Shown here: positions 78-29,488 of the stretch, in pieces | Numbering within the stretch: the first letter of the stretch is position 1 | Layout: each line of letters begins with the position of its first letter | NCBI RefSeq assembly: GCF_029504745.1 | Contig: NZ_JAQFIQ010000014.1 | Coordinates: 1 to 32,000, forward strand | Direction: 5' to 3' | DNA from: Breznakia sp. PF5-3 | GTDB lineage: Bacteria > Bacillota_I > Bacilli_A > Erysipelotrichales > Erysipelotrichaceae | DNA length: 32,000 nucleotides | Made by a program: the position numbers and the translations under genes | Notes under the pieces: generated by a model | Seen by the model: the letters and a program-made list of their open reading frames with translations, nothing else | Databases searched by the model: none | Told to the model about the DNA's origin: nothing

Positions 78-2819
78 CTATCTGTCACAGCCCCTCTCTT
101 TTAAAACTTCTTGACATCTTTCACACAAGCCATCTTCAGTTCGTGCATCAGTAATATTCCAACATCTTGGACAAACAACACCGTTACATTTTTCTACTTT
201 TACTTCAGCAACTTCATATTTTTCTAATACATCATCTGTGAAAGTAACTTTAGAAACTGTTAACCATTGATGAAGTTTATCACCTAAGACTGACTCTAAC
301 AATGCTTTATCGTCATCATACACATGTAATATTACGTGTGCTTCAAGTGGTTTTCCAATAATTTTATCATTTCTACAAGCTTCAATCGCTTTGAAAACAT
401 CTTTACGAATTGCAAATAAACGATTCATCTTTTCTTTTATTTCTTCTGCATTTTCAAATGTTTCAGATGTATTAAACGATTGTAAATGAATACTGTCATC
501 ATACGCTTGGAAATGATCATTAATCTCCTCTGCTGTATGCACAAGGATTGGTGCCCACAACTTCAACAATGTATCACAAACTTTATATAATACTGTTTGT
601 ACTTGTCTTCTTCTTAAACTATCTTGTTTTTCAATATATAAAATATCTTTTGTGAAATCTAGATAATAAGCACTTAACGTATTGGTCATAAAATTTGTTA
701 ACTTTGTTGTAATAGAAGGAAAATCATAACTGATATATGCCTTTTTAATTTCATGATTTAATTCATTTAATACAATAAGTACATGTTGATCAACAAGTGT
801 TAGCGCTTTATTTTCTACCATATCATCCTTTGAAAAATCTTCAGAATTGATATTTCCTAAAATAAATTTAAATGTATTACGTACTTTACGATAATTCTCA
901 CTGATTTGTTTCATGATTGAATTTCCCATAGAAACATCTTGTTGGTAGTCAACACTTGTTGCCCACAAACGTAAAATATCAGCACCATATTGTGAAGTGA
1001 TTTTAGATGGACTAACTGCATTCCATTGTGATTTAGACATTTTCACACCTTTTTCATCCATAACAAATCCATGTGATAAAATTTGTTTATAAGGTGCATG
1101 TCCATATACTGCAGTACCTATAATCAAAGAAGAATTGAACCAACCACGATATTGATCACTTCCTTCAAAATATAAATCTGCTGGATATGGCAATCCTCGA
1201 TCAATCATTGCTTCGGTATGTGAAGATCCTGAATCAAACCATACATCCATAGTATCTGTTTCTTTTGTGAATTCACCATTTGGACTACCCTCATGTGTAT
1301 ATCCTTCAGGTAATAAGTCTTTTACATCTCTTTCAAACCACACATTTGTTCCAAATTCACCAACTAACTTAGAAAAATGATCAAACAATGCTTTTTCCAT
1401 AATCGGTGTTCCATCTTCTGCATAAATGATTGGAATCGGAACTCCCCAAGCTCTTTGTCTTGAAATACACCAATCTCCACGATCACGAATCATATTATGA
1501 AGACGTGTCTCTCCCCAGGCAGGAGTCCAGAATACATTTTCAATTTCTTGCAATAATTGATTTCTAATTTTATCAATTGATGCAAACCATTGTGTTGTAG
1601 CACGATAAATAATTGGTTTTTTAGTACGCCAATCATGTGGGTATGAATGCGTAATAAATTCAAGTTTCAACAAAGCATCTAGCTCTTCTAATTTCATAGT
1701 AACCGTTTTATTTGCATCATCAACATATTGTCCAACTAGAAAATCTCCAGCTTCTTCTGTCATCTTTCCTTGCTCATCAACTGGACAAAATGCTGGTAGC
1801 CCATACTTCATCCCAACATTGAAATCATCTTCCCCATGTCCTGGTGCAGTATGAACACACCCTGTCCCAGCATCTGCTGTTACATGTGAGCCGAGAATAA
1901 CAAGCGATTCACGATCATAAAATGGATGTTTTGTTGTAATACCTTCCAAATGTTCTCCACGGAATGTTTTAAGGATTTTCTTTTCTCTTAAATCAAATTT
2001 TTCCCATAAAGAATCTACTAATTCCTTCAATACAACTAATTTCCCTTTTTCACTTTCCACCAAAGCATATTCTAATCTTGGATTTAAACAAATCGCTAAA
2101 TTTGCAGGGATTGTCCATGGCGTAGTTGTCCAAATAACAAAATAATCATCTGTATCTAAAATATCTTTTCCATCTTTTACTTGGAATTTCACGAAGATAG
2201 TAGGACTTTTAATATCTTTATATTCAATCTCAGCTTCTGCTAAAGCTGTTTCACTTGAAGGTGACCAATATACTGGCTTTAACCCTTGATAAATCAAGCC
2301 ATCACTTGCCATCTTTCCAAATATTTTAATTTGTTGCTCTTCAAATTCCTTCGTTAGTGTAAGATACTTATGCTCATAATCTCCAACTGTACCTAATGCT
2401 TTAAAACCTTTTTCTTGTAACTTAACTTGTTCCAAAGCATATTCATAACAAAGTTTTCTAAAGTCTTCAATTTTCATTTCTTTACGATTGTACCCAAGCT
2501 TTTGAATTGCTGTTTCAATTGGCAAACCATGCGTATCCCAACCTGGAATGTATGGCGTTTCAAAACCTTCCATAAATCGTGAACGAACAATTGTATCCTT
2601 TAAAATTTTATTCATTGCATGCCCTAAATGAATATCTCCATTCGCGTATGGAGGACCATCATGTAAAACGAACTTCTCGCACCCTTTACGTTTTTCCAAC
2701 ATTTTTTCATATAGATTCTCATCTTCCCAGCGTTTTTGAAAACCTGGTTCTTTCGTTGGTAACTTTCCTCTCATTTCAAAATCTGTTTTTGGCATTAATA
2801 ACGTATCTTTATATTCCAT
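78..2819 (-). CDS. ileS: isoleucine--tRNA ligase
   Basis: 913-aa ORF with a class I aaRS HIGH-type motif (PPYANGDIHLGHA), a KMSKS motif and a C-terminal zinc-finger CPRCW...CERC. An Ile T-box leader lies directly upstream. Confidence 0.97.
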   Translation of the reverse strand: MEYKDTLLMPKTDFEMRGKLPTKEPGFQKRWEDENLYEKMLEKRKGCEKFVLHDGPPYANGDIHLGHAMNKILKDTIVRSRFMEGFETPYIPGWDTHGLPIETAIQKLGYNRKEMKIEDFRKLCYEYALEQVKLQEKGFKALGTVGDYEHKYLTLTKEFEEQQIKIFGKMASDGLIYQGLKPVYWSPSSETALAEAEIEYKDIKSPTIFVKFQVKDGKDILDTDDYFVIWTTTPWTIPANLAICLNPRLEYALVESEKGKLVVLKELVDSLWEKFDLREKKILKTFRGEHLEGITTKHPFYDRESLVILGSHVTADAGTGCVHTAPGHGEDDFNVGMKYGLPAFCPVDEQGKMTEEAGDFLVGQYVDDANKTVTMKLEELDALLKLEFITHSYPHDWRTKKPIIYRATTQWFASIDKIRNQLLQEIENVFWTPAWGETRLHNMIRDRGDWCISRQRAWGVPIPIIYAEDGTPIMEKALFDHFSKLVGEFGTNVWFERDVKDLLPEGYTHEGSPNGEFTKETDTMDVWFDSGSSHTEAMIDRGLPYPADLYFEGSDQYRGWFNSSLIIGTAVYGHAPYKQILSHGFVMDEKGVKMSKSQWNAVSPSKITSQYGADILRLWATSVDYQQDVSMGNSIMKQISENYRKVRNTFKFILGNINSEDFSKDDMVENKALTLVDQHVLIVLNELNHEIKKAYISYDFPSITTKLTNFMTNTLSAYYLDFTKDILYIEKQDSLRRRQVQTVLYKVCDTLLKLWAPILVHTAEEINDHFQAYDDSIHLQSFNTSETFENAEEIKEKMNRLFAIRKDVFKAIEACRNDKIIGKPLEAHVILHVYDDDKALLESVLGDKLHQWLTVSKVTFTDDVLEKYEVAEVKVEKCNGVVCPRCWNITDARTEDGLCERCQEVLKERGCDR

Positions 2820-2839: not shown

Positions 2840-3045
2840 AAAAAAACCATCCTTAATCATAAGGACGGTTTAGACCGCGGTACCACCTTAGTTCATTTCA
2901 TATATATGAAATGCGCTTCATTCACTGTAACGTAGCGACCCGTCTTATCCTACTTCTTTTCAAATAAGCTACTCATAAGTGATATCTTTACTATAGAAGC
3001 GTTTGCGTTTCACCATTTTCGCAACTCTCTGTTCACTTCAATACA
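2840..3045 (-). promoter_or_regulatory. T-box riboswitch leader (candidate Ile specifier AUC) with terminator hairpin
   Basis: On the minus strand: stem I AGAGAG...GGTGAAA elements (about 3010-3030), the conserved T-box sequence TAAGGTGGTACCGCGG (2875-2890), a terminator hairpin at 2847-2868 followed by a U-run (2840-2846), and a candidate specifier AUC-A at 2983-2981. Confidence 0.88.
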
Positions 3046-3057
3046 ATAAAGCATGTC

Positions 3058-3519
3058 TTAATCTTTGTATTTCTTTTCTATTAATTCTACATTAGGAATT
3101 GGGGGAATGTCAAATCCATCTATTGTATCTGACAATAAAGCCAACTGTTCATTCAAATTCACTTTAATTTCATTTGCTTCAATTCCCAATTTTGATATTT
3201 TAATCAATATCGTTCTTGCATTCAACAAGGCTTCCTTAATAATCATATCTGCATTATTATTTGCACTGTTTACAATGCTATTTGCTTCACTCAATGCAAT
3301 CCTTGTCATATCTTTTGCAGCTTGTTCTTTGATTTCTAAATCTCTTGATAACTGCTCATATTTCACTTTATACTTTTGAATGCATTTTTGATCTTCTTCA
3401 CTTTGTTTCTTATAAGCATCCAACTTTTTCTTTAATTCATCTATTTCTTCTTGGGCTTTGGATAATGCGTCATCAACTTGAAAACGATTATAACCCTTAT
3501 TCATAGTATCAAATTGCAT
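3058..3519 (-). CDS. divIVA: DivIVA-domain cell division protein
   Basis: 153 aa. N-terminal F..MNKGYNRFQVDDAL DivIVA motif followed by coiled-coil sequence. The sepF-ylmH-divIVA-ileS synteny is conserved. Confidence 0.9.
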   Translation of the reverse strand: MQFDTMNKGYNRFQVDDALSKAQEEIDELKKKLDAYKKQSEEDQKCIQKYKVKYEQLSRDLEIKEQAAKDMTRIALSEANSIVNSANNNADMIIKEALLNARTILIKISKLGIEANEIKVNLNEQLALLSDTIDGFDIPPIPNVELIEKKYKD

Positions 3520-15915: not shown

Positions 15916-16980
15916 CTATACTCTTTCTATAATATTTGTAATATCATAACATGCATTAGGAAAACTATTTTCTTTTGCATGTTTTTTAATCTCTTCTTTT
16001 ATACTTGGATTATTTAAAACCATATTTATTTTATCACAAAGCGTTTGCGTATTTAAATCTTTTTCTTCAATCATCAATGCACTTTTTTTATCTACCAATG
16101 CTTTTGCATTAAAATATTGATGATTATGTGCCACATAAGGGCTTGGAATCAAAATACTACATACTCCACTTGCAGTAATCTCTGCCGCTGTAGTGGCCCC
16201 TGCACGACAAATGACAAGGTCAAATTTATCTACAATAGCCAACTGATCGATATAATCTACAACCTTTACATTTTTGTATGCAAGTTCTTCTTTGGCCAGT
16301 GTATAGTTTTGTTTTCCACTTACATACAAAAAATTCACTTCAGGAATGTTTTGTAAAACATCTTTCATAATATCCGTAATACTACTACTACCTAAAGAAC
16401 CCATCACAATCAATACCAAAGGCTTATCTTTAGGTAAATCCAATGATGAAAAATATGCTTCATCACTTTTTCTTTTTGCTGCAATACTTGCTCTAGGGTT
16501 TCCTAACAAGTATACATGTTGATATTCTTTTAGTTCACTCATACAACGCTCATAGCACACTACAATAGCATTTGCATGCTTCGCCAACATTTTATTAGCT
16601 GCACCCACTACAGAATTCTGTTCATGCAAAACAATTTTTTTACCCAACCGTTGTGCCGCAAGAATTACAGGTACACTTACATAACCACCAAAGCCAATAA
16701 CTACATCTGGATTAAAATCTTTAATGATTTTTTTCGCTTTTCGTAGCGCAATGAGTGATTGACAGCCTGCTTTTATTTTCTTAAAAACATTGCCACTAAA
16801 ACCACTTGTATGTAATGCATAAAAAGGATAACCATGTTCTGGAATAATATCCTTTTCCATTCGATCATCATTACCTACAAATGCAATCTCAGCTTGTTTC
16901 TCTTCTTTTATATAGTCGGCTAGTGCTAAAGCTGGATAAATATGTCCACCTGTACCGCCCGTTACAAATAATAATTTCAA
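15916..16980 (-). CDS. murG: undecaprenyldiphospho-muramoylpentapeptide beta-N-acetylglucosaminyltransferase
   Basis: GGTGGHIYPALA motif close to the N-terminus. The likely start is TTG at 16980, preceded by AGGAG. The 31-codon extension in the ORF track (up to 17073) has no homology signal. Confidence 0.92.
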   Translation of the reverse strand: MKLLFVTGGTGGHIYPALALADYIKEEKQAEIAFVGNDDRMEKDIIPEHGYPFYALHTSGFSGNVFKKIKAGCQSLIALRKAKKIIKDFNPDVVIGFGGYVSVPVILAAQRLGKKIVLHEQNSVVGAANKMLAKHANAIVVCYERCMSELKEYQHVYLLGNPRASIAAKRKSDEAYFSSLDLPKDKPLVLIVMGSLGSSSITDIMKDVLQNIPEVNFLYVSGKQNYTLAKEELAYKNVKVVDYIDQLAIVDKFDLVICRAGATTAAEITASGVCSILIPSPYVAHNHQYFNAKALVDKKSALMIEEKDLNTQTLCDKINMVLNNPSIKEEIKKHAKENSFPNACYDITNIIERV

Positions 16981-16999
16981 AACATCACTCCTGCAAAAT

Positions 17000-17008
17000 A
17001 TTATACCA
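17000..17008 (-). promoter_or_regulatory. candidate extended -10 promoter (TGgTATAAT) for murG-murB-divIB
   Basis: Minus strand TGGTATAAT lies about 20 nt upstream of the murG TTG start and downstream of the srtB terminator. Confidence 0.4.
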
Positions 17009-17110
17009 TTATTTACTATAAAAAATAAGTAGCAATCACACTTATTTATCATGCACAACAATTTAAGTTCCATTACATCTTCCTCATGTAATTATATATT
17101 TATTTTGCAT

Positions 17111-17137
17111 AAAAAAAGATCAAACAAATTGATCTTT
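17111..17137 (-). terminator. intrinsic terminator after srtB
   Basis: AAAGATCAA-loop-TTGATCTTT 9-bp stem (17115-17137), followed on the minus strand by a T-run. Confidence 0.8.
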
Positions 17138-17176
17138 AAAAGCTTTCATGTTCAAAAACCGATATTCTAAAACAAA

Positions 17177-18013
17177 CTAATTTGATTTTTCATATGGCAT
17201 TTCACCATTCAATGCTTTGACGATTTTACAATGGACAAAATATCGATCATCAATATATTCTGCTTCTGTATTCCCTGGGTTTCTACCATCCTCATAACTA
17301 CAAGTATACAAGGTGATTATATGTTCCTTGGCAGTTACTGTCACATCATTCGTATGTCTACTCAACCCTTTTACATAGTCAAGATATGCTTGATACGATG
17401 CGTCATCACCAAAGGAAATATTATAAGACTGAGAATCTCCTTTATCCACATAGGCGCTAAACACTTGTAATTTGTAACTTGCGTCTGGCGTATAATAATA
17501 CACATATGGATGCTTTTCGAAGAAATCTTTTTTCACATAATTTTCCAATTCCGCAAACATCGTTCCATGGTGTACATTATGTCCATAAATAAATGTATTC
17601 GGATCACTTAAATCTTCATTGTTTCGATAATCCATAAAAATAGAACCTGCATAATTTTCTGTTTTATCATAGAGATGATTCAAATAATATTCATTATCAC
17701 TCCCCTTTACAACCGGATATGAGATTTCGGTATCCAAAACAACAATCCACCCAACAATATCTGGATTCACTTTTTTTAATGCATCAAAATCTACCTTGAA
17801 CTTATCCAAATCTTCTTCTTTTGTAGGAATCTTAGCTGTATCACGTAAGCGTTCTGTATCTTTTGCTTCATCATCATTTGCTTTGAAAATCGTATATAAA
17901 TTCCATCCTGCATAAATAAAGACACACACTGCAATCAGCAAAATAAGTCTTTCAATCCATTTACGAACAGGACTAACTTTTCTTCTTTCTTTTTTTCGTT
18001 TTTCCATAAACAT
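17177..18013 (-). CDS. srtB: class B sortase
   Basis: N-terminal TM anchor, catalytic His (FIYGHNVHHG), TLYTCSY cysteine motif and C-terminal Arg (DDRYFVHCK). The start is ambiguous (TTG at 18019, ATG at 18013 or 18007). Confidence 0.88.
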   Translation of the reverse strand: MFMEKRKKERRKVSPVRKWIERLILLIAVCVFIYAGWNLYTIFKANDDEAKDTERLRDTAKIPTKEEDLDKFKVDFDALKKVNPDIVGWIVVLDTEISYPVVKGSDNEYYLNHLYDKTENYAGSIFMDYRNNEDLSDPNTFIYGHNVHHGTMFAELENYVKKDFFEKHPYVYYYTPDASYKLQVFSAYVDKGDSQSYNISFGDDASYQAYLDYVKGLSRHTNDVTVTAKEHIITLYTCSYEDGRNPGNTEAEYIDDRYFVHCKIVKALNGEMPYEKSN

Positions 18014-18060
18014 ATTCAACTCACTTTCTACTAAAGTTTGTACCCTAAACTATCATTTCT

Positions 18061-18089
18061 ATTATACCTAAAAAGCCTTTTTTAGTAAA
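18061..18089 (-). promoter_or_regulatory. candidate promoter for srtB (TTTACT-17-TATAAT)
   Basis: Minus strand: -35 TTTACT (18084-18089), a 17-nt spacer and -10 TATAAT (18061-18066). Confidence 0.45.
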
Positions 18090-18106
18090 CCAATTCCCCC
18101 TTGCCC

Positions 18107-19237
18107 TTATTCTTTGGTAAAGATTTGCAAATCAACATTCATAATATAGTCCAATTCTGCTGCATGTGATTCATCACTTTCAACAAACAATACACCAAAT
18201 GCATCGAATGTTTGAAAATCAAATTTACGCAATGACAAAGGTTTATTAATTTTTGAAAGCAATTGTTCATAATTAAAAAAAGTTATTGGTTCTTTAACAC
18301 TTGGCTTATTAAGAACAATCATTGCATATTTTTCTTTTCCTTTGTTTTTCAAGATTTCATCCCATACTGGAATTTTATTGTTTAAGAAATAATCATATGC
18401 ATAAAAACCAAATGCATAATATGAAAGATCATTACAACACAACCCTGCAAATCGCATTGGGTTACATTCAATAATGGATATTTGCTCATCTTTTACCCTT
18501 ATTTCAATATGAGAAGCAAAATTCATCACCCCTAAATAAGAGTTCATTTGTATAAAAAAGGTTTCAAACTTCTTAAGATTTTGTATAATAATATCTTTAC
18601 TTGTGTAATATAAACGATCACTTACATCTGCATTTGAAGAAAACTCATGTTTTAAAATGTTTAAAATGACTGGTTTACCATTTTCATCAAAATATACATC
18701 AATAGCATACTCTTCTCCATCAATATATTCTTCCAAAATAAACTTACTCTTCCCAACTACCTGCTCATGATAAAGTTCATCCCACTTTGCTACTTCTCTT
18801 TGTAAAGATTGTATTGCTTGTTTATAATCTTTTTCATTTTCAATATAATAAACACCAGCACTAAAGAAGCCAACTGTTGGCTTAAGAATACATGGAACCT
18901 TTATTTGGGAAAAAGGTAAGTTGAATAGTGATGATAAATCAAGTTCTCTAAAATAATACGTTGGATACATATCCTTCATTTTTTCACGAAAAAGTGCTTT
19001 ATCTTTCATTATCTCAATATTTTGAATACGAACTTTGTTTTCATCATTTTCATAAACCCAATGTAGAGATGTTTCCGAAGCTGTATAAATACGTTCCCCC
19101 GGTATAGCTCTCTGTACTAGATTCAATCCATCAATACCTTGCGATTGAATATAATCATTTAATAACACTGGGTGTTGTGATGTTTTTGCATAAGTTATTA
19201 AGTCTTCTGAAATATATGGTTTATCTAATATAATCAT
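18107..19237 (-). CDS. ATP-grasp domain protein (carboxylate-amine/L-amino-acid-ligase-like; substrate unknown)
   Basis: 376 aa. ATP-grasp hallmarks: ILKPTVGFFSAGVYYI, ILEEYIDGEEYAIDVYF and HIEIRV....ISIIECNPMRFAG. The ATG at 19237 is preceded by GGAGGA. Confidence 0.8.
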   Translation of the reverse strand: MIILDKPYISEDLITYAKTSQHPVLLNDYIQSQGIDGLNLVQRAIPGERIYTASETSLHWVYENDENKVRIQNIEIMKDKALFREKMKDMYPTYYFRELDLSSLFNLPFSQIKVPCILKPTVGFFSAGVYYIENEKDYKQAIQSLQREVAKWDELYHEQVVGKSKFILEEYIDGEEYAIDVYFDENGKPVILNILKHEFSSNADVSDRLYYTSKDIIIQNLKKFETFFIQMNSYLGVMNFASHIEIRVKDEQISIIECNPMRFAGLCCNDLSYYAFGFYAYDYFLNNKIPVWDEILKNKGKEKYAMIVLNKPSVKEPITFFNYEQLLSKINKPLSLRKFDFQTFDAFGVLFVESDESHAAELDYIMNVDLQIFTKE

Positions 19238-19259
19238 TTTTATCCTCCATATTTTTATC

Positions 19260-19288
19260 ATCATAACATAAAAGGTCTATTGTGCAAA
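19260..19288 (-). promoter_or_regulatory. candidate promoter for the ATP-grasp gene (TTTGCA-17-TGtTATGAT)
   Basis: Minus strand: extended -10 TGTTATGAT (19260-19268), with -35 TTTGCA (19283-19288) lying in the loop of the pyrG terminator. Confidence 0.35.
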
Positions 19289-19315: not shown

Positions 19316-20908
19316 TTATTTTAAAGAAGCTTTTATGAATTCCCTAAATAAAGGATGTGCTTTATTTGGTCTAGATTTGAATTCAGGATGATATTGAACT
19401 CCAATATGAAAATCATTTTTATTATATTCGATTGCCTCCACAAGAAGATTATCTGGACTCGTTCCTACAATTTCCATATGATTATGAATAAATTCATCAC
19501 GATAATCATTATTAAACTCATAACGATGGCGATGCCTTTCAGATATCTTTTCTTCTTGGTAAGTATAATATAATTTTGAATCTTTTTTAATAGTGCATGG
19601 GTAAGCTCCTAAACGCATTGTTCCACCTTTGTGATCTATGCTAATTTGTGAGTCCATTAAATCAATTACATTGTGTTTTCCTTGTGGAGTGAATTCACTT
19701 GAATTTGCATCTAGATATTTTAAAACATTTCGAGCAAACTCTATCGTTGCAATTTGCATCCCTAAACATATTCCTAAATATGGAATATTATTTTCTCGTG
19801 CATATTGACAAGCTAAAACCATGCCATCCATTCCACGCTCTCCAAAACCACCAGGAATGATAATGCCATGACATTCGCCAAGCACTTCACTAATTGTATC
19901 TGGATTCAAAGATTCACTATCTATCCATTTTATTTCCACTTCTGCATCATTTTCATAGCCTCCATGCTTTAGTGCTTCTACAATGGATAAATATGCATCA
20001 TGTAACTTTGTATACTTTCCAACCAACGCTATTTTAGCCTGCTTATTACAGCTTTTTATTCTTGTTACTAAAGTTTTCCAAGCCTCCATATTTGGTGCTG
20101 GAGTTATCAAATTCAATTCACGACAGACAATATCAGAAAAATTCGCTTCCTCCAACATCAATGGACATTCATATAAGATAGGAAGAGTTACATTTTGAAT
20201 AACACAATCCTTTTTCACATTACAAAAAAGCGCAATTTTATTTAATATAGAAACATCTAAAAATTCATCACTTCGACATACAATGATATCTGGAGAAATT
20301 CCCAATGATTGCAATTCTTTTACACTATGCTGCGTTGGTTTTGATTTATGTTCCCCACTGCTTTTAATGTAAGGGACTAACGTTACATGAATAAACAAAC
20401 AATTCTCTTTTCCCACCTCAAAACTCACTTGTCGAATTGCTTCTAAAAATGGTTGCGATTCAATATCCCCTGTAGTTCCACCAATTTCACTGATCACCAT
20501 ATCAGCGTCTTGTTCATCACCTACAGCATAAATAAAATCTTTAATCTCTTGTGTAATATGAGGAATTACTTGTACCGTTTCACCTAAATATTCACCTTTG
20601 CGTTCTTTATTTAAAACATTCCAATATACCTTTCCACTTGTTAAATTGGAAAACCGATTCAAATCCTCATCAATAAACCGCTCATAATGGCCCAAATCAA
20701 GATCTGTCTCAGCTCCATCATCGGTCACAAAAACTTCACCATGCTGATAAGGTGACATCGTTCCACAATCTACATTGATATATGGATCCATCTTCTGTGC
20801 CATAACTTTTAAACCACGTTCTTTTAATAACCTACCTAAACTAGCAGCTGTAATGCCTTTCCCCAAGCCACTTACAACACCACCTGTTACAAAAATATAT
20901 TTTCTCAT
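19316..20908 (-). CDS. pyrG: CTP synthase (glutamine-hydrolysing)
   Basis: [19 protein letters not shown]-terminus, GATase nucleophile GICLGMQ and HRHRYEFN. The ATG at 20908 is preceded by GGTGGGTG and lies only 12 nt from the stop of the ANTAR gene. Confidence 0.96.
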
Positions 20909-20920
20909 TTCACCCACCAT

Positions 20921-21487
20921 TTAACCATATGTCTTTAATATTTCCTTTGCTACCATTTCTTTTGAAACACGTTTATCCATCGCTTTCTTTTCAATATATC
21001 GATGTGCTTGTACTTCGCTCATATTCAAATATTCAATCAGAACGTACTTTGCTCGACTAATCAATTGAATATTTTCTACTTTTTCATGTAAACGAATATT
21101 TTCATCATGAAAATTACTAATTCTTCGATGTGTCGATAGTGCCATTGAGATCGCTTGTGTGAACACTTGACGATCAAGTGGTTTTCCTATACACATAACA
21201 CCAAATTTATTTAGCCGATTACTAACATCTTCTAAGATTTCCTTTTTTATCAACATAACTACTCCACTAGTTGAATTTTGTGCAGCATACATTGTAATCT
21301 CATGCCCAAATTCATCAGCGAGTGGTGTATTGATTAACACTAAATCAAAACGTTGAGTATTCAACAACTGTTTTGCTTCTTTTGCACTTTTACTAGCTAC
21401 AATCGTATCGATATGAATAGCTTTTAAAAGTTGTGATAGTGCATCAAGACTTTTATCTAAACTGGAAACAATCAAACAACTACTCAT
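20921..21487 (-). CDS. ANTAR-domain antiterminator with a degenerate (pseudo-)receiver domain
   Basis: 188 aa. The C-terminal ANTAR region is LISRAKYVLIEYLNMSEVQAHRYIEKKAMDKRVSKEMVAKEIL. The N-terminal part has a CheY-like fold but lacks the acidic pocket and the phospho-acceptor Asp. Confidence 0.85.
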   Translation of the reverse strand: MSSCLIVSSLDKSLDALSQLLKAIHIDTIVASKSAKEAKQLLNTQRFDLVLINTPLADEFGHEITMYAAQNSTSGVVMLIKKEILEDVSNRLNKFGVMCIGKPLDRQVFTQAISMALSTHRRISNFHDENIRLHEKVENIQLISRAKYVLIEYLNMSEVQAHRYIEKKAMDKRVSKEMVAKEILKTYG

Positions 21488-21503
21488 ACCTTACCTCACT
21501 TTC

Positions 21504-22775
21504 CTAAATTAATTTAAAATATGGATCACTATCAAATCTTTGCTCATCTTTATATGATGCAGCTTCTTCACTCTTTATTTCACAGAACATTGTAACTGTT
21601 TTTTTATTTATTACTTCTTTAACAAATTCTGAATTTTGTACACTTTCTACAGCTTCTTTCAGATTTTTTGGCAATTCCTTTGTACTTTTTGAATGCCCCT
21701 CACTCAATGTTTCACTTTTTCGCATCCCTTCAATTCCCGCATATAATAATAAGCCATAGGCGTAATAAGGATTACATGCAGCATCTGCTGAGCGCAACAT
21801 GATATAAGAATACTCATCTTGCTTTTCATCAACACGCAACAACTGACTTTGATTCCCTTCGGCCCAAGTTATGTACTTTGGTGCTTTTTCACTTCCCAAA
21901 CGTTCATAAGAATTATTAATTGGATTCAAAAACAAACTCATCTCATAAGTACGATTCAATACTCCAGCAATAAAATTTCGTTGTTCCTCCAAGTTTACTT
22001 CATAATCATCTTCAAAAATATTTCGATCATTCTTGCTTAGGGTTACTTTAATTCTCAATCCACTACCACTTGCATCAGCAAGCGGGCGTGGTAAAAATGA
22101 AGCATACAAATCATTCAATAAAGCAATACTCTTTACACAGTTCTTAAACGTTATCAAGTTATCTGCAGCTTGCAATGCATAATTATCTTCAAAGGTTATC
22201 ACGTTTTGTCCAGGTCCTTTTTCATGATAACTCATCTTTGTTTTTACACCCATTTCTTCTAAAGAAAGACATATTTCTCGACGAATATTTTCACCACCAT
22301 CCAAAGGTGTAACATCCAAATACGATGCATGGTCAATCGGTCGATTTGTAGGATTTCCATCCACATCGTTTTGAAATAAATAAAACTCGCTTTCAATCCC
22401 TATTTTAGGTGTATATCCATAGGATTCACAAGCCTCCATCGCTTGTTTTAAAAAGTATCTTCCATCTCCTTCAAATGGCGTTCCATCAAGGTGTCGAATA
22501 TCACAAAAAAAACGAACAACTTTTTCATGACCTGATCTCCATGGCAAGATTGTCATTGTATCCAAATCTGGATAGAGTAGTAAATCCGTTTTCTTATAGT
22601 TCATAAAACCATTAACATCAGATGCATCTAAGTTAATTCCTTCTTCTGTGGCTTGTTCGAAGTCGTCTGCATTAATAGATAAATTTTTGAGTGTTCCAAA
22701 AATATCACAAAATGCTAAGCGAACAAATTTCACATGATTTAGCTCAATATACCGCAAAATTTTCTCTATTTTCAT
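21504..22775 (-). CDS. class I glutamine synthetase homolog with substituted active-site motifs (GS-like, possibly non-catalytic)
   Basis: 423 aa, collinear with GlnA (VKFVRLAFCDIFGTLKN, DGTPFEGD, GIESEFYLF, NSYERL, LRSAD..CNPY). However GQxE reads GQNV, NGSGMH reads SGSGLR, NRS reads NQS and ExRSxD reads MLRSAD. The ATG at 22775 is preceded by GGAGGA. Confidence 0.85.
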   Translation of the reverse strand: MKIEKILRYIELNHVKFVRLAFCDIFGTLKNLSINADDFEQATEEGINLDASDVNGFMNYKKTDLLLYPDLDTMTILPWRSGHEKVVRFFCDIRHLDGTPFEGDGRYFLKQAMEACESYGYTPKIGIESEFYLFQNDVDGNPTNRPIDHASYLDVTPLDGGENIRREICLSLEEMGVKTKMSYHEKGPGQNVITFEDNYALQAADNLITFKNCVKSIALLNDLYASFLPRPLADASGSGLRIKVTLSKNDRNIFEDDYEVNLEEQRNFIAGVLNRTYEMSLFLNPINNSYERLGSEKAPKYITWAEGNQSQLLRVDEKQDEYSYIMLRSADAACNPYYAYGLLLYAGIEGMRKSETLSEGHSKSTKELPKNLKEAVESVQNSEFVKEVINKKTVTMFCEIKSEEAASYKDEQRFDSDPYFKLI

Positions 22776-22796
22776 GACATCCTCCATTCTGTTTTC

Positions 22797-22825
22797 ATTA
22801 TAACACGAAAAATCTTATGTCTGAA
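22797..22825 (-). promoter_or_regulatory. candidate promoter of the GS-like/ANTAR/pyrG operon (TTCAGA-17-TGtTATAAT)
   Basis: Minus strand: extended -10 TGTTATAAT (22797-22805) and -35 TTCAGA (22820-22825). The predicted leader is very short, about 15 nt. Confidence 0.5.
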
Positions 22826-22868
22826 TTATAGACCTAATTATAAAATGATGTCAACTCTCAAAATCAAC

Positions 22869-22897
22869 TTTCTAAATTCAAAAAAATTGTCTATAAT
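22869..22897 (+). promoter_or_regulatory. candidate promoter for the GNAT gene (weak -35, TATAAT -10)
   Basis: TATAAT at 22892-22897, with TTTCTA/TTCTAA 16-17 nt upstream. Confidence 0.3.
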
Positions 22898-22937
22898 AAG
22901 GTTACATCTTACTAAAAAATATACTTGGAGAACGCTT

Positions 22938-23462
22938 ATGCACAATTATTTTTTAAAAACTAAACGAATTGGATTTTCAAAATGGAATTATGATGATTTG
23001 GAACTTGCAACAAAACTATGGGGCAATAAAGAAGTGGGTAAGTATATTCATGCAAATCATTTTTTTAGTGTTGAAGAGATACATGAGCGTCTAAAGGAAG
23101 AAATCAAGAATGAGGAATATTTTCATATTCAATATTTTCCTATTTTTTCATTATCTGACAATCAATTTATTGGTTGTTGTGGCTTTCGTCCCTTTGTGGA
23201 CAATCCACAACAAATAGAAATGGGATTTCACTTACTTCCTGCATTTTGGCATCAAGGATATGCCTTTGAAGCAAGTGATGCAATTTTAAAATACATTCAT
23301 AATAAACATCGTGAATTAAAGATTTATGCAGGACATCACCCTGATAATGAAGCTTCAGCAAGACTTTTAAAGAAATTGGGGTTTTTATACTTTAAAGATG
23401 AGTTTTATAAGCCAACAAACAAATATCATCGATGCTATCAATATTCTAAAAATATAGCTTGA
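22938..23462 (+). CDS. GNAT family N-acetyltransferase (RimJ/RimL-like)
   Basis: About 174 aa starting at the ATG at 22938 (RBS TGGAGAA). GNAT core: IGCCGFRP...GFHLLPAFWHQGYAFEA...ASARLLKKLGF. The ORF-track extension from 22845 is unlikely to be real. Confidence 0.85.
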   Translation: MHNYFLKTKRIGFSKWNYDDLELATKLWGNKEVGKYIHANHFFSVEEIHERLKEEIKNEEYFHIQYFPIFSLSDNQFIGCCGFRPFVDNPQQIEMGFHLLPAFWHQGYAFEASDAILKYIHNKHRELKIYAGHHPDNEASARLLKKLGFLYFKDEFYKPTNKYHRCYQYSKNIA

Positions 23463-23487
23463 CAAGAAACCCAAGAAAGGATAAACT
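23459..23487 (+). promoter_or_regulatory. candidate promoter TTGACA-17-TAAACT overlapping the GNAT stop codon
   Basis: A perfect -35 TTGACA (23459-23464), a 17-nt spacer and TAAACT (23482-23487). A transcript from here would begin just upstream of the attenuator hairpins. Confidence 0.35.
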
Positions 23488-23512
23488 CTTTGTATAACAG
23501 CAAAGGTGCTGT
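23476..23512 (+). promoter_or_regulatory. candidate ANTAR-type dual hexaloop hairpin (P1 and P2); P2 competes with the terminator
   Basis: P1 is AAAGG-AUAAAC-UCUUU (23476-23491) and P2 is ACAGC-AAAGGU-GCUGU (23497-23512), separated by a 5-nt linker. The P2 loop has A at position 1 and G at position 4. P2 uses nt 23505-23512, which belong to the left arm of the terminator. Confidence 0.4.
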
Positions 23513-23541
23513 AGGTATTTTTATCTACGGCACCTTTTTTT
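23505..23541 (+). terminator. strong intrinsic terminator/attenuator in the glnN leader
   Basis: GGTGCTGTAG-loop-CTACGGCACC 10-bp stem (one G-U pair) followed by 7 T (23535-23541). Only 15 nt separate the T-run from the glnN RBS GGGAGG (23557-23562). Confidence 0.8.
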
Positions 23542-23568
23542 GTTAGTTCGATTAATGGGAGGAAATTT

Positions 23569-25668
23569 ATGAAAACAAACGTGACTGAGGTTTTTGGGTC
23601 TATGGTCTTTGATGATCGTTGTATGAAAGCAAAGTTACCTAAAGATGTTTATAAAAAGTACAAAGCTACGATCGATGAAGGAAAGCTTCTTGATCCTGAT
23701 TGTGCTAATACCATTGCATCCGCTATGAAAGATTGGGCTATTGAAAACGGTGCAACACATTATACTCATTGGTTTCAGCCAATGACAGGAATCACTGCAG
23801 AAAAGCATGATGCTTTTATTTCTCCAAGTGGAGATGGAAGTATTATCATGGAATTTTCTGGTAAAGAACTTATCAAGGGTGAACCAGATGCTTCTAGTTT
23901 TCCTAATGGTGGATTACGAGCAACTTTTGAAGCTCGTGGTTATACTGGGTGGGATCCAACATCATATACATTCATCAAAGAAGGCGTTTTATGTATCCCA
24001 AGTGTCTTCATGTCTTACAATGGCGAAGCACTTGATAAAAAAACACCACTCCTAAAATCTCAAGAACTTATCAATACGCAAGCATTGCGAATTCTAAAGT
24101 TATTTGGTAAAGATAATGTGAAACGCGTTCATACAACCGTTGGTGCAGAACAAGAATACTTTCTTATTGAAAAGTCACTTTGGGATCAACGAAAAGACTT
24201 GATTTACACTGGTAGAACACTTTATGGTGCTAGACCTCCAAAAACTCAAGAACTTGATGACCACTACTTTGGTGTATTAAAACCAAAAGTAGCATCGTTT
24301 ATGAAAGAACTGAATGAAGAATTGTGGAAATTAGGTATTCTAGCAAAAACGCAACATAATGAAGTTGCTCCTGCACAACATGAATTAGCACCTATCTATT
24401 CACTCACAAATGTCGCTACCGACCATAATCAACTAACTATGGAAATCATGAAAAAAGTGGCCTTACGCCATGGACTTGTTTGTTTATTACATGAAAAGCC
24501 GTTTGCAGGAATCAACGGAAGTGGTAAACACAATAACTGGTCCCTATCAACAGATACCGGAGAGAACCTGTTAGAACCTGGAGATACGCCAAGTGAAAAC
24601 GCTCAATTCTTGCTTATGCTAGCAGCGCTAGTTAAAGCTGTTGACGATTACCAAGACTTACTAAGAATATCTGTTGCAAGTGCAGGAAATGATCATCGCT
24701 TAGGTGCTAATGAAGCCCCTCCTGCAATCATTTCCATCTTTACTGGTTCTGAGTTAGAAGAAATCATAAATGCAATCATTGAAGATAGACCTTGCAAAAC
24801 GGTATGTGCGAATAAAATGACCATCGGTGTTGATGCCTTACCTCCTTTTACAAAAGACACAACCGATCGTAATCGTACATCACCGTTTGCTTTTACTGGA
24901 AACAAATTTGAATTTCGCATGTTAGGATCACAATTATCTATTTCTTGTCCTAATATTATGATTAACACAATTGTTGCCGATACATTAAATAACTTTGCTG
25001 ACCATTTAGAAAAAGCAACAGATTTTAATAAAGAATTACACGAATTGATTAAAAAAACATTTACTGAACATCAAAGAATCATATTTAATGGTAATGGATA
25101 TGATGATTCATGGATTGTAGAGGCAGAAAAGCGAGGACTTATGAATTTTAGAACTACGCCAGAAGCTTTGCCACACTATATGGATGAGAAAAATATTCAA
25201 TTATTTACTAGAAATAACATTTACACAAAAAGTGAAATGCAATCTCGTATGGATATCTTAATCGAAGAATATTCAAAGGCTATTAATATTGAAGCAGAAA
25301 CAATGGTAAACATGTCTAAGAAGAATATCATTCCTGCCATTTTAGCTTATATCAAAGATTTGAGTGAAAGCATTGTTACCAAAAAGGCAATATCTTCAAC
25401 GATAAAGTTTGAAGTTGAAGACTCTCTCATCAATAAATTAAGTGTTCTTGCGAGTGATTTGTATCGTAAAACAGAAGAATTAGCAGATGATATCATTAAA
25501 GCTAATGGAATTAAAGACTTGCAAGAAAATGCTAAATATTATTGTAATAGCGTGCTTGTGAAAATGGTTGACTTGCGTGCCATTGCCGATGAAATCGAGC
25601 AAAACTGCGCCAAGCAGTATTGGCCCTTCCCTTCATATGGAGATTTATTATATTCTGTCTCTATATAA
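23569..25668 (+). CDS. glnN: glutamine synthetase, type III
   Basis: 699 aa with GSIII length and N-terminus. Catalytic motifs are intact: AEQEYFL, HNEVAPAQHE, NGSGKHNNWS, ANEAPP, DRNRTSPFAFTGNKFEFR. Confidence 0.93.
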   Translation: MKTNVTEVFGSMVFDDRCMKAKLPKDVYKKYKATIDEGKLLDPDCANTIASAMKDWAIENGATHYTHWFQPMTGITAEKHDAFISPSGDGSIIMEFSGKELIKGEPDASSFPNGGLRATFEARGYTGWDPTSYTFIKEGVLCIPSVFMSYNGEALDKKTPLLKSQELINTQALRILKLFGKDNVKRVHTTVGAEQEYFLIEKSLWDQRKDLIYTGRTLYGARPPKTQELDDHYFGVLKPKVASFMKELNEELWKLGILAKTQHNEVAPAQHELAPIYSLTNVATDHNQLTMEIMKKVALRHGLVCLLHEKPFAGINGSGKHNNWSLSTDTGENLLEPGDTPSENAQFLLMLAALVKAVDDYQDLLRISVASAGNDHRLGANEAPPAIISIFTGSELEEIINAIIEDRPCKTVCANKMTIGVDALPPFTKDTTDRNRTSPFAFTGNKFEFRMLGSQLSISCPNIMINTIVADTLNNFADHLEKATDFNKELHELIKKTFTEHQRIIFNGNGYDDSWIVEAEKRGLMNFRTTPEALPHYMDEKNIQLFTRNNIYTKSEMQSRMDILIEEYSKAINIEAETMVNMSKKNIIPAILAYIKDLSESIVTKKAISSTIKFEVEDSLINKLSVLASDLYRKTEELADDIIKANGIKDLQENAKYYCNSVLVKMVDLRAIADEIEQNCAKQYWPFPSYGDLLYSVSI

Positions 25669-26588: not shown

Positions 26589-27419
26589 TTAATCAAATAC
26601 TGCAACTACTAAATCACCATATGTTTTTTCAATGTATTTCTTAGTTTTTGCGTTTGTTAAGACTTTTATCAAAGCTTTGATTTTTTTATCATCCCCATGC
26701 CCTTTTTTAACTGCGATTACATTTGCATATGTTTGTGCTGCTTCACTACCTTTATCTTCTGACACAATCAAGTTTCCATCCACTTCATTTGTCAATGCAT
26801 AATTTCCATTTATGATAGCATAATCTACATCAGGTAATGTTGCTGCTACACCTTCCGCTTTAACTTCAAGAATTTCAACATTCTTTGGATTCTTCGTGAT
26901 ATCTGTTTTAGTTGCTGATAATCCTGCATCTTTTTTTACCTCGATAATTCCTTTTGCAGCTAACAATTGAAGAGCTCTTGCTTCATTTGTTGGATCATCT
27001 GGCACAGAGATAACAGCGCCGTCTTTCACATCATCAACTGAGAAATCTTCATTTTTTTCAGTTGTATCATTACTATAAATTCCAATTGGTTCAAAGTGAA
27101 TTTTTGCCACTGCTTCTACTTCTGTACCATTATCTTCATTAAATCCTTCTAAATATGGCGTATGTTGGAAAAAGTTTGCATCTATTTCCCCTTCATCAAC
27201 AGCTAAGTTTGGTTGAACATAATCATCAAATACTTGAATATCTAACTCATACCCTTCTTTTTTCAAATCTTCTTCAATGCTTTCTAAGATTTCTGCATGT
27301 GGTGATGCAGAAGCTCCAATTGTAATTGTTTCTAATTCTTCTTTAGCTTCATCACCACTATTTCCACCACAGCCTACTAATAGTCCTAAAGCTATAAATA
27401 CACCTAATAATTTTTTCAT
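26589..27419 (-). CDS. metQ: methionine ABC transporter substrate-binding lipoprotein (MetQ/NlpA family)
   Basis: Lipobox LLVGCGG. NlpA-family sequence features and a position in the metN-metI-metQ operon. Confidence 0.92.
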   Translation of the reverse strand: MKKLLGVFIALGLLVGCGGNSGDEAKEELETITIGASASPHAEILESIEEDLKKEGYELDIQVFDDYVQPNLAVDEGEIDANFFQHTPYLEGFNEDNGTEVEAVAKIHFEPIGIYSNDTTEKNEDFSVDDVKDGAVISVPDDPTNEARALQLLAAKGIIEVKKDAGLSATKTDITKNPKNVEILEVKAEGVAATLPDVDYAIINGNYALTNEVDGNLIVSEDKGSEAAQTYANVIAVKKGHGDDKKIKALIKVLTNAKTKKYIEKTYGDLVVAVFD

Positions 27420-27431
27420 TTCTTTCTCCTC

Positions 27432-28175
27432 CTAATGGGTTGTTTTTCTTGTTAAATAATTTCCTAATGCTTGTATCGCGGTTACGATTAATAAAATAAT
27501 AATTACTGTAGACCAGGTTGCATCCACTTTACCTCGTGCATATCCATGTCGAATAGCAAATGCACCTAGACCTCCTCCTCCTACTTGACCAGCCATTGCA
27601 GTTAATCCAAGCAATGAAATCAAGGTAATTGATACGGAGCGAATAATACCAGGAATACTCTCTTTTAAATAAACTCGTGTAATGATTTGCATTGGTGTGT
27701 TTCCCATTGCAATACTTGCTTCAATCAATCCATCATCTACTTCTGAAAGTACCGATTCAATTTGTCTTGCAAAAAATGGAATAGTTCCAAAAATTAAGGG
27801 AATATATGTTCCTTTTATACCAGTTGCCGTCCCCATAACCAATCTTGATGCACCAACCAATAAAGCCATCAAAATAACAAATGGAATAGAACGGAAGAAA
27901 TTAATAAATTTATCTAAGATAAAATAAATAATTTTGTTTTCCAAAATTCCATCTTTCTTAGTAACGGTAATAAGAACCCCAAAGATTATTCCAAATATCA
28001 ATGCAAAGATTCCTGAAAAGAATAACATTTTTAATGTCATATATGTTTCTTGTACCAATTCACTAATCATTTTAGGATTATTCATAAAATCCATAGGTAG
28101 AAATTGTGTAACAACATCAAATATGACAGCTAAGATTGACTCAAAAAAATTTGAAATCATTGTTCCTATATCCAT
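27432..28175 (-). CDS. metI: methionine ABC transporter permease
   Basis: 247 aa polytopic protein with an ABC permease loop (DDGLIEASIAMGNTPMQII). The start overlaps the metN stop (TAATG). Confidence 0.9.
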   Translation of the reverse strand: MDIGTMISNFFESILAVIFDVVTQFLPMDFMNNPKMISELVQETYMTLKMLFFSGIFALIFGIIFGVLITVTKKDGILENKIIYFILDKFINFFRSIPFVILMALLVGASRLVMGTATGIKGTYIPLIFGTIPFFARQIESVLSEVDDGLIEASIAMGNTPMQIITRVYLKESIPGIIRSVSITLISLLGLTAMAGQVGGGGLGAFAIRHGYARGKVDATWSTVIIILLIVTAIQALGNYLTRKTTH

Positions 28176-29209
28176 TATTTCAACACCTCCACTCCAACAC
28201 CTTGTCCTTTAATATACGTGATAGCACTTTCTATGTTTGCTTTTTCACCTTTCAGCTTAACCACCAAATTTCCAAGTGGACTATTCGCTAGTACTTCAAC
28301 ATTACCAAATATGATATTAAAACTAACATCATATGTTTTCACTAAGTACGTCATCAAAGCTTCTTTGGTATTGCTAGATGAGTAAACAAGCCGTAACATC
28401 GTCTCATCAACATCCAAATCGACAAGCGGATCATTCTTCTCAATCAATTCATAAATCTGATGAATCGATGTAGTCGTATTAATAAAAGTACGTGTAACTT
28501 CACTTTTTGGTTTTGTAAAAATATCTATGATATTTCCTTCTTCTACAATATTTCCATCTTCCATGATTGCTACTTTGTTACAAATCGCTTTTACAACTGC
28601 CATTTCATGAGTGATGATTACAATTGTTATTTTGAGCTTTTCATTTAAGTTTTTTAGAAGTGCTAGTATTGATTGTGTTGTTTGAGGATCAAGTGCACTT
28701 GTTGCTTCATCACAAAGCAGAATACTAGGATCATTAGCCAAAGCTCTTGCAATTGCAACTCTTTGCTTTTGTCCTCCACTAAGCTGTGATGGATATGCTT
28801 TCTTCTTGTCCTTTAATTCTACTAATTCCAATAATTCATCAACCTTCTTATTTATTTGCTCTTTACTTAAACCACTTCCCTTTAGCGGAAAAGCGATGTT
28901 TTGAGCAACAGTTCTAGATCTCATCAAATTGAAATGTTGAAATATCATTCCTATTTTCTTCCGTTCTGCACGTAAATCCCGTGCACTCAAATCCATTAAA
29001 TTTTTACCATCAATTACTACTTCACCCTCGGTTGGACGTTCTAATAAATTAATACAACGAATTAAAGTACTTTTTCCAGCACCACTGAATCCAATGACAC
29101 CAAATATATCTTTCTCCTCTATATGTAAGGATGCTTTTCTTACTGCATGTACATCATTTTCTTTGGTCTTAAATATTTTTGTGATATTCACTAATTGGAT
29201 TTTACTCAC
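28175..29209 (-). CDS. metN: methionine ABC transporter ATP-binding protein (with C-terminal NIL domain)
   Basis: Walker A GFSGAGKST, signature LSGGQKQR, Walker B ILLCDEATSALD. The likely start is GTG at 29209, preceded by AGGAGGTGG; the ORF-track extension to 29260 would run into the T-box terminator. Confidence 0.93.
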   Translation of the reverse strand: MSKIQLVNITKIFKTKENDVHAVRKASLHIEEKDIFGVIGFSGAGKSTLIRCINLLERPTEGEVVIDGKNLMDLSARDLRAERKKIGMIFQHFNLMRSRTVAQNIAFPLKGSGLSKEQINKKVDELLELVELKDKKKAYPSQLSGGQKQRVAIARALANDPSILLCDEATSALDPQTTQSILALLKNLNEKLKITIVIITHEMAVVKAICNKVAIMEDGNIVEEGNIIDIFTKPKSEVTRTFINTTTSIHQIYELIEKNDPLVDLDVDETMLRLVYSSSNTKEALMTYLVKTYDVSFNIIFGNVEVLANSPLGNLVVKLKGEKANIESAITYIKGQGVGVEVLK

Positions 29210-29228
29210 ACTTCCACCTCCTATAAAA

Positions 29229-29488
29229 TAAAAAAACATTCTCCCAAAGGACGAATGCATCGTGTTACCACCTTAATTTACTAATATATTACTATATTAG
29301 CCTCTTCGAGTACTATCATACTCTATCACAATAACGGGTGAACCCGACATAATCTAAAGAACTCTCATTCAATTATGTAACTCCAAGACCATTTTCGATA
29401 AACTACTAACCTTATCCATTTTCACCATACTGGACTCTCTAAGAAGGATTTCATAAATGTACTCTTCTCTTCATCGTTTTTAATTTAT
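29229..29488 (-). promoter_or_regulatory. T-box riboswitch leader (candidate Met specifier AUG) controlling metNIQ
   Basis: On the minus strand: stem I AGAGAGTCCAGTATGGTGAAAATGG, candidate specifier GAA-AUG-A (AUG at 29368-29366), the T-box sequence TAAGGTGGTAACACG (29261-29275), and a terminator hairpin at 29237-29257 followed by a T-run. Confidence 0.88.

Follow-up and report, generated by a model that had tools for sequence, protein, structure and literature searches.

A glutamine synthetase homolog with a degenerate catalytic site, paired with a NitR-type antiterminator gene in Breznakia, as a candidate nitrogen sensor

The 32,000-nucleotide (nt) stretch of Breznakia sp. PF5-3 DNA analyzed here (contig NZ_JAQFIQ010000014.1, positions 1 to 32,000; hereafter the window) encodes a 423-residue homolog of class I glutamine synthetase (GS) whose ATP and metal site is, as judged from sequence alignment, destroyed, although the protein keeps its GS fold and some of the amino-acid pocket. 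This GS-like gene is followed directly by a gene for a NitR-type ANTAR protein and is divergent from a gene for a type III GS (GSIII), the leader of which is predicted to fold as an attenuator. We propose, with a probability of roughly 0.6, that the dead GS is a ligand-sensing partner that sequesters the NitR antiterminator and thereby controls the type III GS.

A glutamine synthetase fold with a degenerate ATP and metal site

The GS-like open reading frame (ORF) lies on the minus strand, stops being found throughout the plus-strand translation of 21504-22775. It begins with an ATG at 22775, and its product, which starts with MKIEKIL, is identical to an annotated protein of Breznakia sp. PF5-3, a member of the family Erysipelotrichaceae. 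As the first-pass annotation of this DNA had held, the ORF is uninterrupted, is preceded by a strong ribosome-binding site and encodes a protein that aligns end to end with class I GS: the Pfam domains Gln-synt_N (7.5e-24) and Gln-synt_C (6.2e-72) together span its whole length. The protein is ~50% identical to hundreds of GSI-alpha proteins carrying the signatures FxRLAFCDI and HHEQGPGQNE, and we assign it to the NitR-linked GSI-alpha subfamily, that of the clostridial glnA-nitR pair. An AlphaFold2 (AF2) model computed from 60 homologs has a predicted local distance difference test score of 88 and a predicted template-modeling (TM) score of 0.91, and matches solved GSI-alpha structures with TM scores of 0.89-0.92. 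On this model, the protein adopts a full-length class I-alpha GS fold.

As for the catalytic site, we aligned the protein with HMMER to the P. polymyxa and M. mazei GS (7tdp, 8ufj; E about 1e-88) and within family alignments of up to 195 sequences, using Salmonella GS numbering. Four substitutions that had been read by eye in the first-pass annotation are each confirmed by both kinds of alignment: E220V (GQxE to GQNV), H269R (GSGMH to GSGLR), R339Q (NRS to NQS) and E357M (ExR to MLR). A fifth, in the flap, had been left ambiguous because of a possible gap and is now settled as E327K (YEAP to EKAP), the closest subfamily proteins having the same length without a gap (FEAP versus EKAP). Five more losses, which had gone unnoticed, are H210Y, F225D, H271K, S273T and R355Y, and the residues that are retained include D50, S53, E129, E131, E212, R321, R344 and R359. 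We take the six metal ligands of the Salmonella enzyme to be E129, E131, E212, E220, H269 and E357 (with E220 binding metal n1, and H269 and E357 metal n2), the ATP contacts to be F225, H271, S273, R339 and R355 (with F225 stacking on the adenine and R339 binding phosphate), and E327 to be the flap residue. Three of the six metal ligands (E220, H269 and E357) have therefore been lost and three (E129, E131 and E212) remain, and the ATP/phosphate-site residues H210, F225, H271, S273, R339 and R355 have become Y, D, K, T, Q and Y, respectively. Misalignment as the source of these losses was rejected, the EFYLF, GPGQN, NSYxR and RSxD anchors being gap-free in all groups; none of the lost catalytic residues reappears in these alignments.

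The replaced positions are otherwise nearly invariant. In 73 intact relatives, eight of the nine positions other than the flap are 100% conserved and the ninth at least 92%. Among the columns at least 90% conserved in these relatives, changes affect 9 of 17 catalytic columns versus 26 of 154 others (Fisher p = 0.0017), an enrichment which argues that the substitutions are not random drift. The protein scores 291.5 bits against the NCBIfam GlnA equivalog TIGR00653, for which the cut-off is 429.15 and an intact relative (L009, in the locus numbering used throughout) scores 459.1, and it falls far under the cut-offs of every NCBIfam GS-like equivalog (198.7 versus 650 for GGputSyn). From these changes we infer that GS enzyme activity has been lost.

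Despite this, the protein is strongly conserved. B. pachnodae, B. blatticola and Erysipelotrichaceae MTC7, together with six metagenomic proteins, share the replacements at identities as low as 53%, and these degenerate Breznakia/Erysipelotrichaceae proteins group as one clade, on its own branch of a midpoint-rooted neighbor-joining tree of subfamily members. Residues that have come to occupy the pocket are fixed in the clade (Y183 and R241 in 10 of 10 proteins, K243 in 9 of 10), 122 of 171 family-conserved columns are retained in at least 9 of its 10 members, and the ORF is uninterrupted in all four genomes and in the six metagenomic relatives. Pairwise ratios of nonsynonymous to synonymous substitution rates (dN/dS) are 0.07-0.14, rough values since dS is saturated; they resemble those of the adjoining ANTAR gene, are about twice those of pyrG and the GSIII gene, and point to purifying selection across related genomes that share the substitutions. 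Strong conservation of a protein with an apparently dead catalytic site argues that the GS-fold protein is kept for something besides making glutamine.

An ANTAR partner, repeated catalytic losses and an attenuated target gene

The gene directly downstream encodes a 188-residue protein with an ANTAR domain (Pfam, 5e-14) and a receiver-like domain that scores 28.6 bits against Response_reg, under the cut-off of 30.2. This pseudo-receiver displays VSS, that is, a Ser-Ser pair where an acidic pair is expected, as well as a conserved IN-x-PL-x-DEFG motif, and its Asn53 aligns with the phospho-acceptor Asp of M. tuberculosis Rv1626. With Asn at that site, the protein cannot act as a phosphorylated response regulator and, like AmiR and NasT, would need a protein partner.

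The GS-like protein is the obvious candidate. Starting from the degenerate clade, a genome scan yielded 80 loci of the GSI-alpha subfamily in Clostridia and Erysipelotrichia, in 79 of which the ANTAR gene lies directly downstream of the GS-like gene, the exception ending at a contig edge. Nearly all the ANTAR proteins in these loci have Asn at the phospho-site, and IN-x-PL-x-DEFG is invariant. In the reciprocal scan, run on metagenomes with the ANTAR alignment alone, a GS-like gene is directly upstream of the ANTAR gene in 68 of 74 loci with at least 300 nt of upstream sequence. Within the subfamily, whose specific peptide patterns were used in both scans, the pairing is nearly obligate. An arrangement of GS-like, ANTAR and pyrG (CTP synthase) genes in this order also recurs in many loci, L001-L003 and L161 among them. 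Between the ANTAR gene and pyrG of the window we found no terminator, so pyrG is probably co-transcribed with the pair. Only the ANTAR adjacency, however, is near-universal in both search directions; those of pyrG and the GSIII gene are frequent but far from constant.

Loss of catalytic residues among these ANTAR-linked proteins has occurred repeatedly. Most relatives in the genome set are intact at all 18 positions scored. In two Romboutsia species (L040 and L047; 6001-7299), 8 of the 18 are changed, by replacements unlike those in Breznakia (R339L, R344K, R355N, H269Y and E357K among them), and since the Romboutsia proteins are sister to intact Intestinibacter proteins, this loss is independent. 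Of 59 metagenomic ANTAR-linked GS-like proteins, some of which come from near-duplicate contigs, 24 have at least 5 of the 18 positions changed, in about eight distinct patterns (seen in L085, L089, L101, L107, L112, L115, L131, L135, L150, L158 and other loci) that include E129R/K, E212K/S/L, H269K/T/L/F, E357K/Q/A and R359I/C. The EFYLF, GPGQN, NSYxR and RSxD anchors align cleanly, which argues against alignment artifacts in this set as well. Throughout the 59 proteins R321 is retained (59/59), as are E131 (57/59) and, in most, S53, and their ANTAR partners all keep IN-x-PL-x-DEFG, a motif that was part of the search pattern. Lys or Arg often stands at former metal-ligand positions in the degenerate proteins, which suggests that side-chain charge may replace the charge of the lost metals.

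The flap is also changed outside the degenerate group. In about one-fifth of otherwise intact ANTAR-linked GSI-alpha proteins, flap residue E327 is already Lys or Arg (FRAP, DKAP), as in L009, L016 and L028 (Acetivibrio) and in L052, L059, L061 and L064 (Intestinibacter and a related Clostridium sp.). These may be reduced-activity enzymes or intermediates toward sensors.

The presumed regulated target is the type III GS, the real GS of the locus. Over its full length it matches B. fragilis GSIII (3o6x, E = 6e-191), and its motifs are intact, in line with the first-pass annotation, and by its residues it is the sole catalytically intact GS in the window. Its leader contains a hairpin with an A1/G4 hexaloop that is predicted to be mutually exclusive with an intrinsic terminator. 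Such a hexaloop, with a terminator overlapping it, marks ANTAR targets (Ramesh et al. 2012, PMC3369931). The terminator fold has a free energy of -27 kcal/mol (z = -9) and the hairpin alone only -7 kcal/mol, so the default state should be OFF unless something stabilizes the hairpin. By extrapolation from known ANTAR targets, NitR would bind this hairpin.

The leader element is conserved in L001-L003 and L161 and, at one copy per locus, is present in ~49 of the 80 related loci of the genome set. In a comparison of 39 leaders, 6 pairs of the terminator show compensatory changes, pairing is 94.5%, and the covariation score was reached by none of 500 shuffles. The hairpin stem is invariant in the same 39 leaders, in part because the set was chosen by sequence pattern; among covariance-model matches outside that pattern it covaries in six loci, reading CGGC/GCCG in L024 and L038 and AAGC/GCTT in L046, L049, L065 and L078. 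The hairpin follows the predicted transcription start by a few nucleotides, and the variable sequence 5' of it falls at that start. Rfam 15, searched over the whole window at gathering cut-offs and over 20800-23700 up to E = 10, has no match to this leader; besides two unrelated T-box leaders it returned chance matches only.

Elsewhere the element precedes gltB, encoding glutamate synthase (L007, 5636-5693, minus strand), asnA followed by GSIII (L024, 2243-2300, minus), asnA in Acetivibrio (L009, 565-622, minus) and amtB-glnK (L107, 2231-2308, minus). Its presence before GSIII, asnA, gltB and amtB-glnK outlines an ammonium-assimilation regulon. Autoregulation was considered and rejected: the element is absent before the GS-like/ANTAR operon, whose 5' untranslated region is very short and without an attenuator, and it sits on the strand of the target gene, once per locus, matches on the opposite strand being mirror images of the palindromic terminator. 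In a further, metagenomic locus (L155), a NitR-type ANTAR gene at 1469 has no GS-like gene upstream, and an attenuator (1352-1407, plus strand) lies directly before it.

A proposed sensor-antiterminator mechanism and its alternatives

This context, co-transcription with an ANTAR gene and an attenuator before the GSIII gene, offers a reason why the GS-like gene is kept. In the mechanism we propose, the GS-like protein, likely an oligomer, would sense a nitrogen metabolite in its remodeled pocket, most likely glutamine. With ligand bound, under nitrogen excess, the oligomer would hold the NitR pseudo-receiver and keep NitR off RNA, whereupon the GSIII leader would fold as a terminator and transcription would stop. 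When the ligand is scarce, NitR would be freed to bind the leader's 5'-terminal hexaloop hairpin and block the terminator, and the type III GS would be made. The Breznakia protein would thus be a separation-of-function variant that has kept regulation and dropped catalysis, the enzyme being supplied by GSIII. Physical binding of the GS-like protein to NitR, the identity of the ligand and the sign of control are all suggested by analogy, with the sequestration of AmiR by AmiC and of NasT by NasS and with the binding of TnrA and GlnR by B. subtilis GS. Clo1313_2031, the type I-alpha GS gene of C. thermocellum, adjoins the ANTAR gene Clo1313_2030 (PMC4676874, PMC9888227), and its deletion "deregulates nitrogen metabolism," with urease genes up, according to later papers that cite the work (Rydzak 2017, as cited in PMC5887222, PMC9888227 and PMC4676874). 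It is this phenotype that suggests the sign of control given above. The mutant reportedly shows a nitrogen-starvation-like transcriptome despite high glutamine.

The first-pass annotation had proposed a GS pseudoenzyme retained for some noncatalytic role. That proposal is supported by the alignments, the signs of selection, the ANTAR partner and the repeated losses; the ANTAR gene and the GSIII leader, which it did not include, make a concrete mechanism possible.

Several points weigh against the sensor reading. Most ANTAR-linked relatives of the GS-like protein are catalytically intact, so an enzyme and its regulator could simply be co-regulated, which would account for the linkage without a sensor-effector pair. 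The survival of E129, E131 and E212 leaves room for residual or altered chemistry, the selection estimates suffer from the saturation of dS, and the pairing figures, obtained with subfamily-specific patterns, describe this subfamily only. The GSIII leader has one hexaloop hairpin, whereas characterized ANTAR proteins need two (PMC3369931); a second one (P1), upstream of or within the terminator, was found in none of about 40 leaders. What is reported of the C. thermocellum mutant comes at second hand and might be a metabolic effect of enzyme loss, and in the searchable literature, subscription-only papers being outside its scope, we found no published GS-NitR or GS-ANTAR complex and no partner described for a GS pseudoenzyme.

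Four alternatives were weighed. The protein could be a noncatalytic regulator of another target, such as the type III GS, CTP synthase or PII, with NitR receiving its signal elsewhere. We regard this as unlikely: while pyrG follows the pair in many loci, GSIII is usually adjacent, and GS proteins do bind small regulators (for example, GlnK in the M. mazei GS-GlnK1 structure 8tge), the ANTAR gene is the sole near-universal neighbor in both search directions, and NitR, with an invariant surface motif on a pseudo-receiver that has no phospho-acceptor, appears to need a protein partner. We give slightly less credence to a constitutive structural co-factor of NitR, that is, a scaffold for dimerization or RNA binding that senses no metabolite. 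The degenerate lineages do have no common set of pocket substitutions, and hence no universally preserved ligand site beyond R321, EFYLF and NSYxR. Against a scaffold speak the retention of R321, E131 and S53 across the metagenomic proteins and the fixation of remodeled pocket residues in the Breznakia clade; furthermore, a switch for ammonium assimilation needs a nitrogen signal, and the locus has no other conserved sensor gene.

A third possibility, more doubtful again, is that the protein has retained an enzymatic function with changed chemistry (for instance, that of a gamma-glutamyl ligase acting on a different amine, or a metal- or ATP-independent reaction) and is merely co-transcribed with the regulator. 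In favor of this, the intact fold is under selection, E129, E131, E212, R321 and R359 remain, and conservation extends to the new pocket residues Y183, R241 and K243. Some GS-fold enzymes also use other substrates: gamma-glutamylputrescine synthetase and glutamate-methylamine ligase are among the matches. However, all the ATP contacts listed above and half of the metal ligands are replaced, and to our knowledge characterized GS-fold ligases keep these residues. The scores far under every GS-like equivalog cut-off also speak against it, and other ANTAR-linked lineages have ruined the site in mutually incompatible ways (E129R/K, E212K, H269K/L/F, R359I/C), a poor fit with one shared new chemistry. 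Finally, a decaying gene that persists only through its position upstream of the ANTAR gene and pyrG would account for the accumulated catalytic losses, and the functional type III GS nearby would make a second GS redundant, but this very improbable option is effectively refuted by the dN/dS values, similar to those of the ANTAR gene, and by clade-wide conservation (ORFs uninterrupted down to 53% identity, the 122 columns kept), besides the confident AF2 model.

A wider version of the sensor reading is tentative, and we place it a little short of even odds: GSI-alpha-fold proteins may be the dedicated nitrogen-metabolite receptors of the whole NitR class in Clostridia and Erysipelotrichia, with catalysis optional and lost many times, positively charged side chains often occupying the former metal sites, and a hitherto uncatalogued single-hairpin attenuator governing a GSIII/asnA/gltB/amtB-glnK regulon. 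On that view the Breznakia protein would be a naturally occurring separation-of-function allele, in which the regulatory role is the conserved one.

Nitrogen sensing in clostridia and related bacteria has been unclear since glnA-nitR was described, NitR having no phospho-acceptor, known kinase or ligand domain, and a dead yet conserved GS beside NitR amounts to a natural experiment with an obvious receptor candidate. If the proposed mechanism holds, it would be a third route by which GS proteins govern gene expression, through an RNA-binding antiterminator instead of a DNA-binding factor, and a bacterial case of repeated enzyme-to-sensor conversion. It would also provide a compact and portable nitrogen-responsive attenuator of about 50 nt plus two proteins, and a mechanistic interpretation of the glnA deletion to which biofuel strain engineering has turned in C. 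thermocellum, and would mean that many "glutamine synthetase" annotations in gut Firmicutes are probably not enzymes.

Features of the window and comparison with known systems

Table 1. Features of the GS-like locus and other elements of the window
Feature	Position	Strand	Remarks
Type III glutamine synthetase gene (glnN)	23569..25668	+	Divergent from GS-like gene; catalytic motifs intact
Predicted intrinsic terminator of GSIII leader	23502..23541	+	16-bp stem then T-run; minimum-free-energy leader fold
Predicted antiterminator hairpin, ACAGC-AAAGGT-GCTGT	23497..23512	+	Hexaloop A1/G4; loop and 3' arm common to terminator
GSIII promoter, TTGACA-17-TAAACT	23459..23487	+	Hexamers conserved in L001-L003 and L161, spacer variable
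GNAT acetyltransferase gene (Acetyltransf_3)	22938..23462 (long ORF from 22845)	+	Between GS-like gene and GSIII leader
Sigma-70-like promoter, TTGACA-18-TATAAT	22854-22825	-	12/12 consensus matches; GS-like/ANTAR/pyrG operon
Extended -10 promoter, second of tandem sigma-70-like pair	22825-22797	-	GS-like/ANTAR/pyrG operon
Ribosome-binding site GGAGG	22781..22785	-	5 nt before GS-like ATG; read from sequence
GS-like gene, putative pseudoenzyme, 423 aa	21504..22775	-	Gln-synt_N and Gln-synt_C; ATP/metal site degenerate
NitR-type ANTAR gene, predicted antiterminator, 188 aa	20921..21487	-	Begins 16 nt past GS-like stop
pyrG, CTP synthase, glutamine amidotransferase	19316..20908	-	Likely start 20908, 12 nt past ANTAR stop
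ATP-grasp_4 protein gene	18107-19264	-	Pfam; first of the genes downstream of pyrG (15916-19264)
280-aa ORF	17177-18019	-	At position of sortase in L161; identity inferred from synteny
385-aa ORF	15916-17073	-	At position of MurG-type glycosyltransferase in L161; identity inferred from synteny
T-box leader (Rfam RF00230)	2858-3074	-	116.6 bits
T-box leader (Rfam RF00230)	29244-29483	-	112.3 bits
ORFs preceded by second T-box	28175-29260, 27432-28175, 26589-27419	-	Last looks lipoprotein-like

The GNAT gene, found only in the window and in L001 (B. pachnodae) and absent from B. blatticola, MTC7 and L161, is outside the conserved core; it probably starts with the ATG at 22938, not at 22845, since the Pfam domain begins at residue 41 of the long ORF. 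On the other side of the locus, the order in L161 is pyrG, one gene without a Pfam match, sortase and the MurG-type gene. That L161, with a GS-like protein only 53% identical, keeps the order downstream of pyrG argues that the synteny is old.

Lengsin, a class I GS-fold pseudoenzyme of the vertebrate lens, has kept the fold without GS activity, as the Breznakia protein appears to have done, but it serves a structural role in eukaryotes and has neither a regulatory partner nor a genetic switch. In the GS trigger enzyme of B. subtilis, a GSI-alpha dodecamer tells a gene regulator the glutamine status by protein contact: the enzyme feedback-inhibited by glutamine binds TnrA and GlnR (PMC6316151). 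The structural matches of the Breznakia protein include such assemblies, with a GlnR peptide and with TnrA (7tfa, 4s0r). However, the B. subtilis GS is fully active and its partner a DNA-binding protein of MerR type, whereas the Breznakia GS is apparently dead and its proposed partner binds RNA. There is no TnrA or GlnR gene beside the GS-like gene, which is flanked by the ANTAR and GNAT genes, although the window was not searched for MerR-type genes.

The clostridial glnA-nitR systems (C. saccharobutylicum NCP262; C. thermocellum Clo1313_2031/2030) likewise consist of a GSI-alpha gene followed by a gene for an ANTAR "response regulator," and are likewise associated with genes for glutamate synthase (GOGAT), GSIII and asnA. 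Their GlnA keeps all catalytic residues and is treated as an enzyme, whereas the ATP/metal site of the Breznakia protein appears destroyed. NitR is described as an antiterminator that induces GS and GOGAT genes under nitrogen limitation (PMC6316151, PMC4676874), by a mechanism "not fully understood" (PMC6316151). In the searchable literature, delimited as above, GS is nowhere proposed as the NitR receptor, and neither a dead GS beside NitR nor a single-hairpin attenuator consensus was found; GS and glnA also go unmentioned in a 2025 review of RNA-binding antiterminators.

As for the RNA, dual-hairpin ANTAR targets have been described near nitrogen genes, including GS genes (PMC3369936, PMC3369931). 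The targets of EutV, NasR and AmiR likewise display the A1/G4 hexaloop, a 3' part common to the terminator and a position upstream of nitrogen-metabolism genes, but they have two hairpins, whereas the GSIII leader has a single one and no conserved P1. AmiC-AmiR of P. aeruginosa and NasS-NasT of P. denitrificans involve the same type of ANTAR protein, with a non-phosphorylatable pseudo-receiver, antiterminating a leader. Their sensors, AmiC and NasS, have the fold of periplasmic binding proteins. AmiC holds AmiR and NasS holds NasT, and the antiterminator is released when ligand status changes (PMC3369931; 2025 antiterminator review). These complexes have been demonstrated, whereas that of the Breznakia pair is putative, its candidate sensor being a GS-fold protein that is probably a large oligomer. 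The glnA-nitR pair, dual-hairpin targets, GS trigger enzymes and the sequestration of ANTAR proteins by sensors were thus already known; what we propose as new is a GS pseudoenzyme as the sensor.

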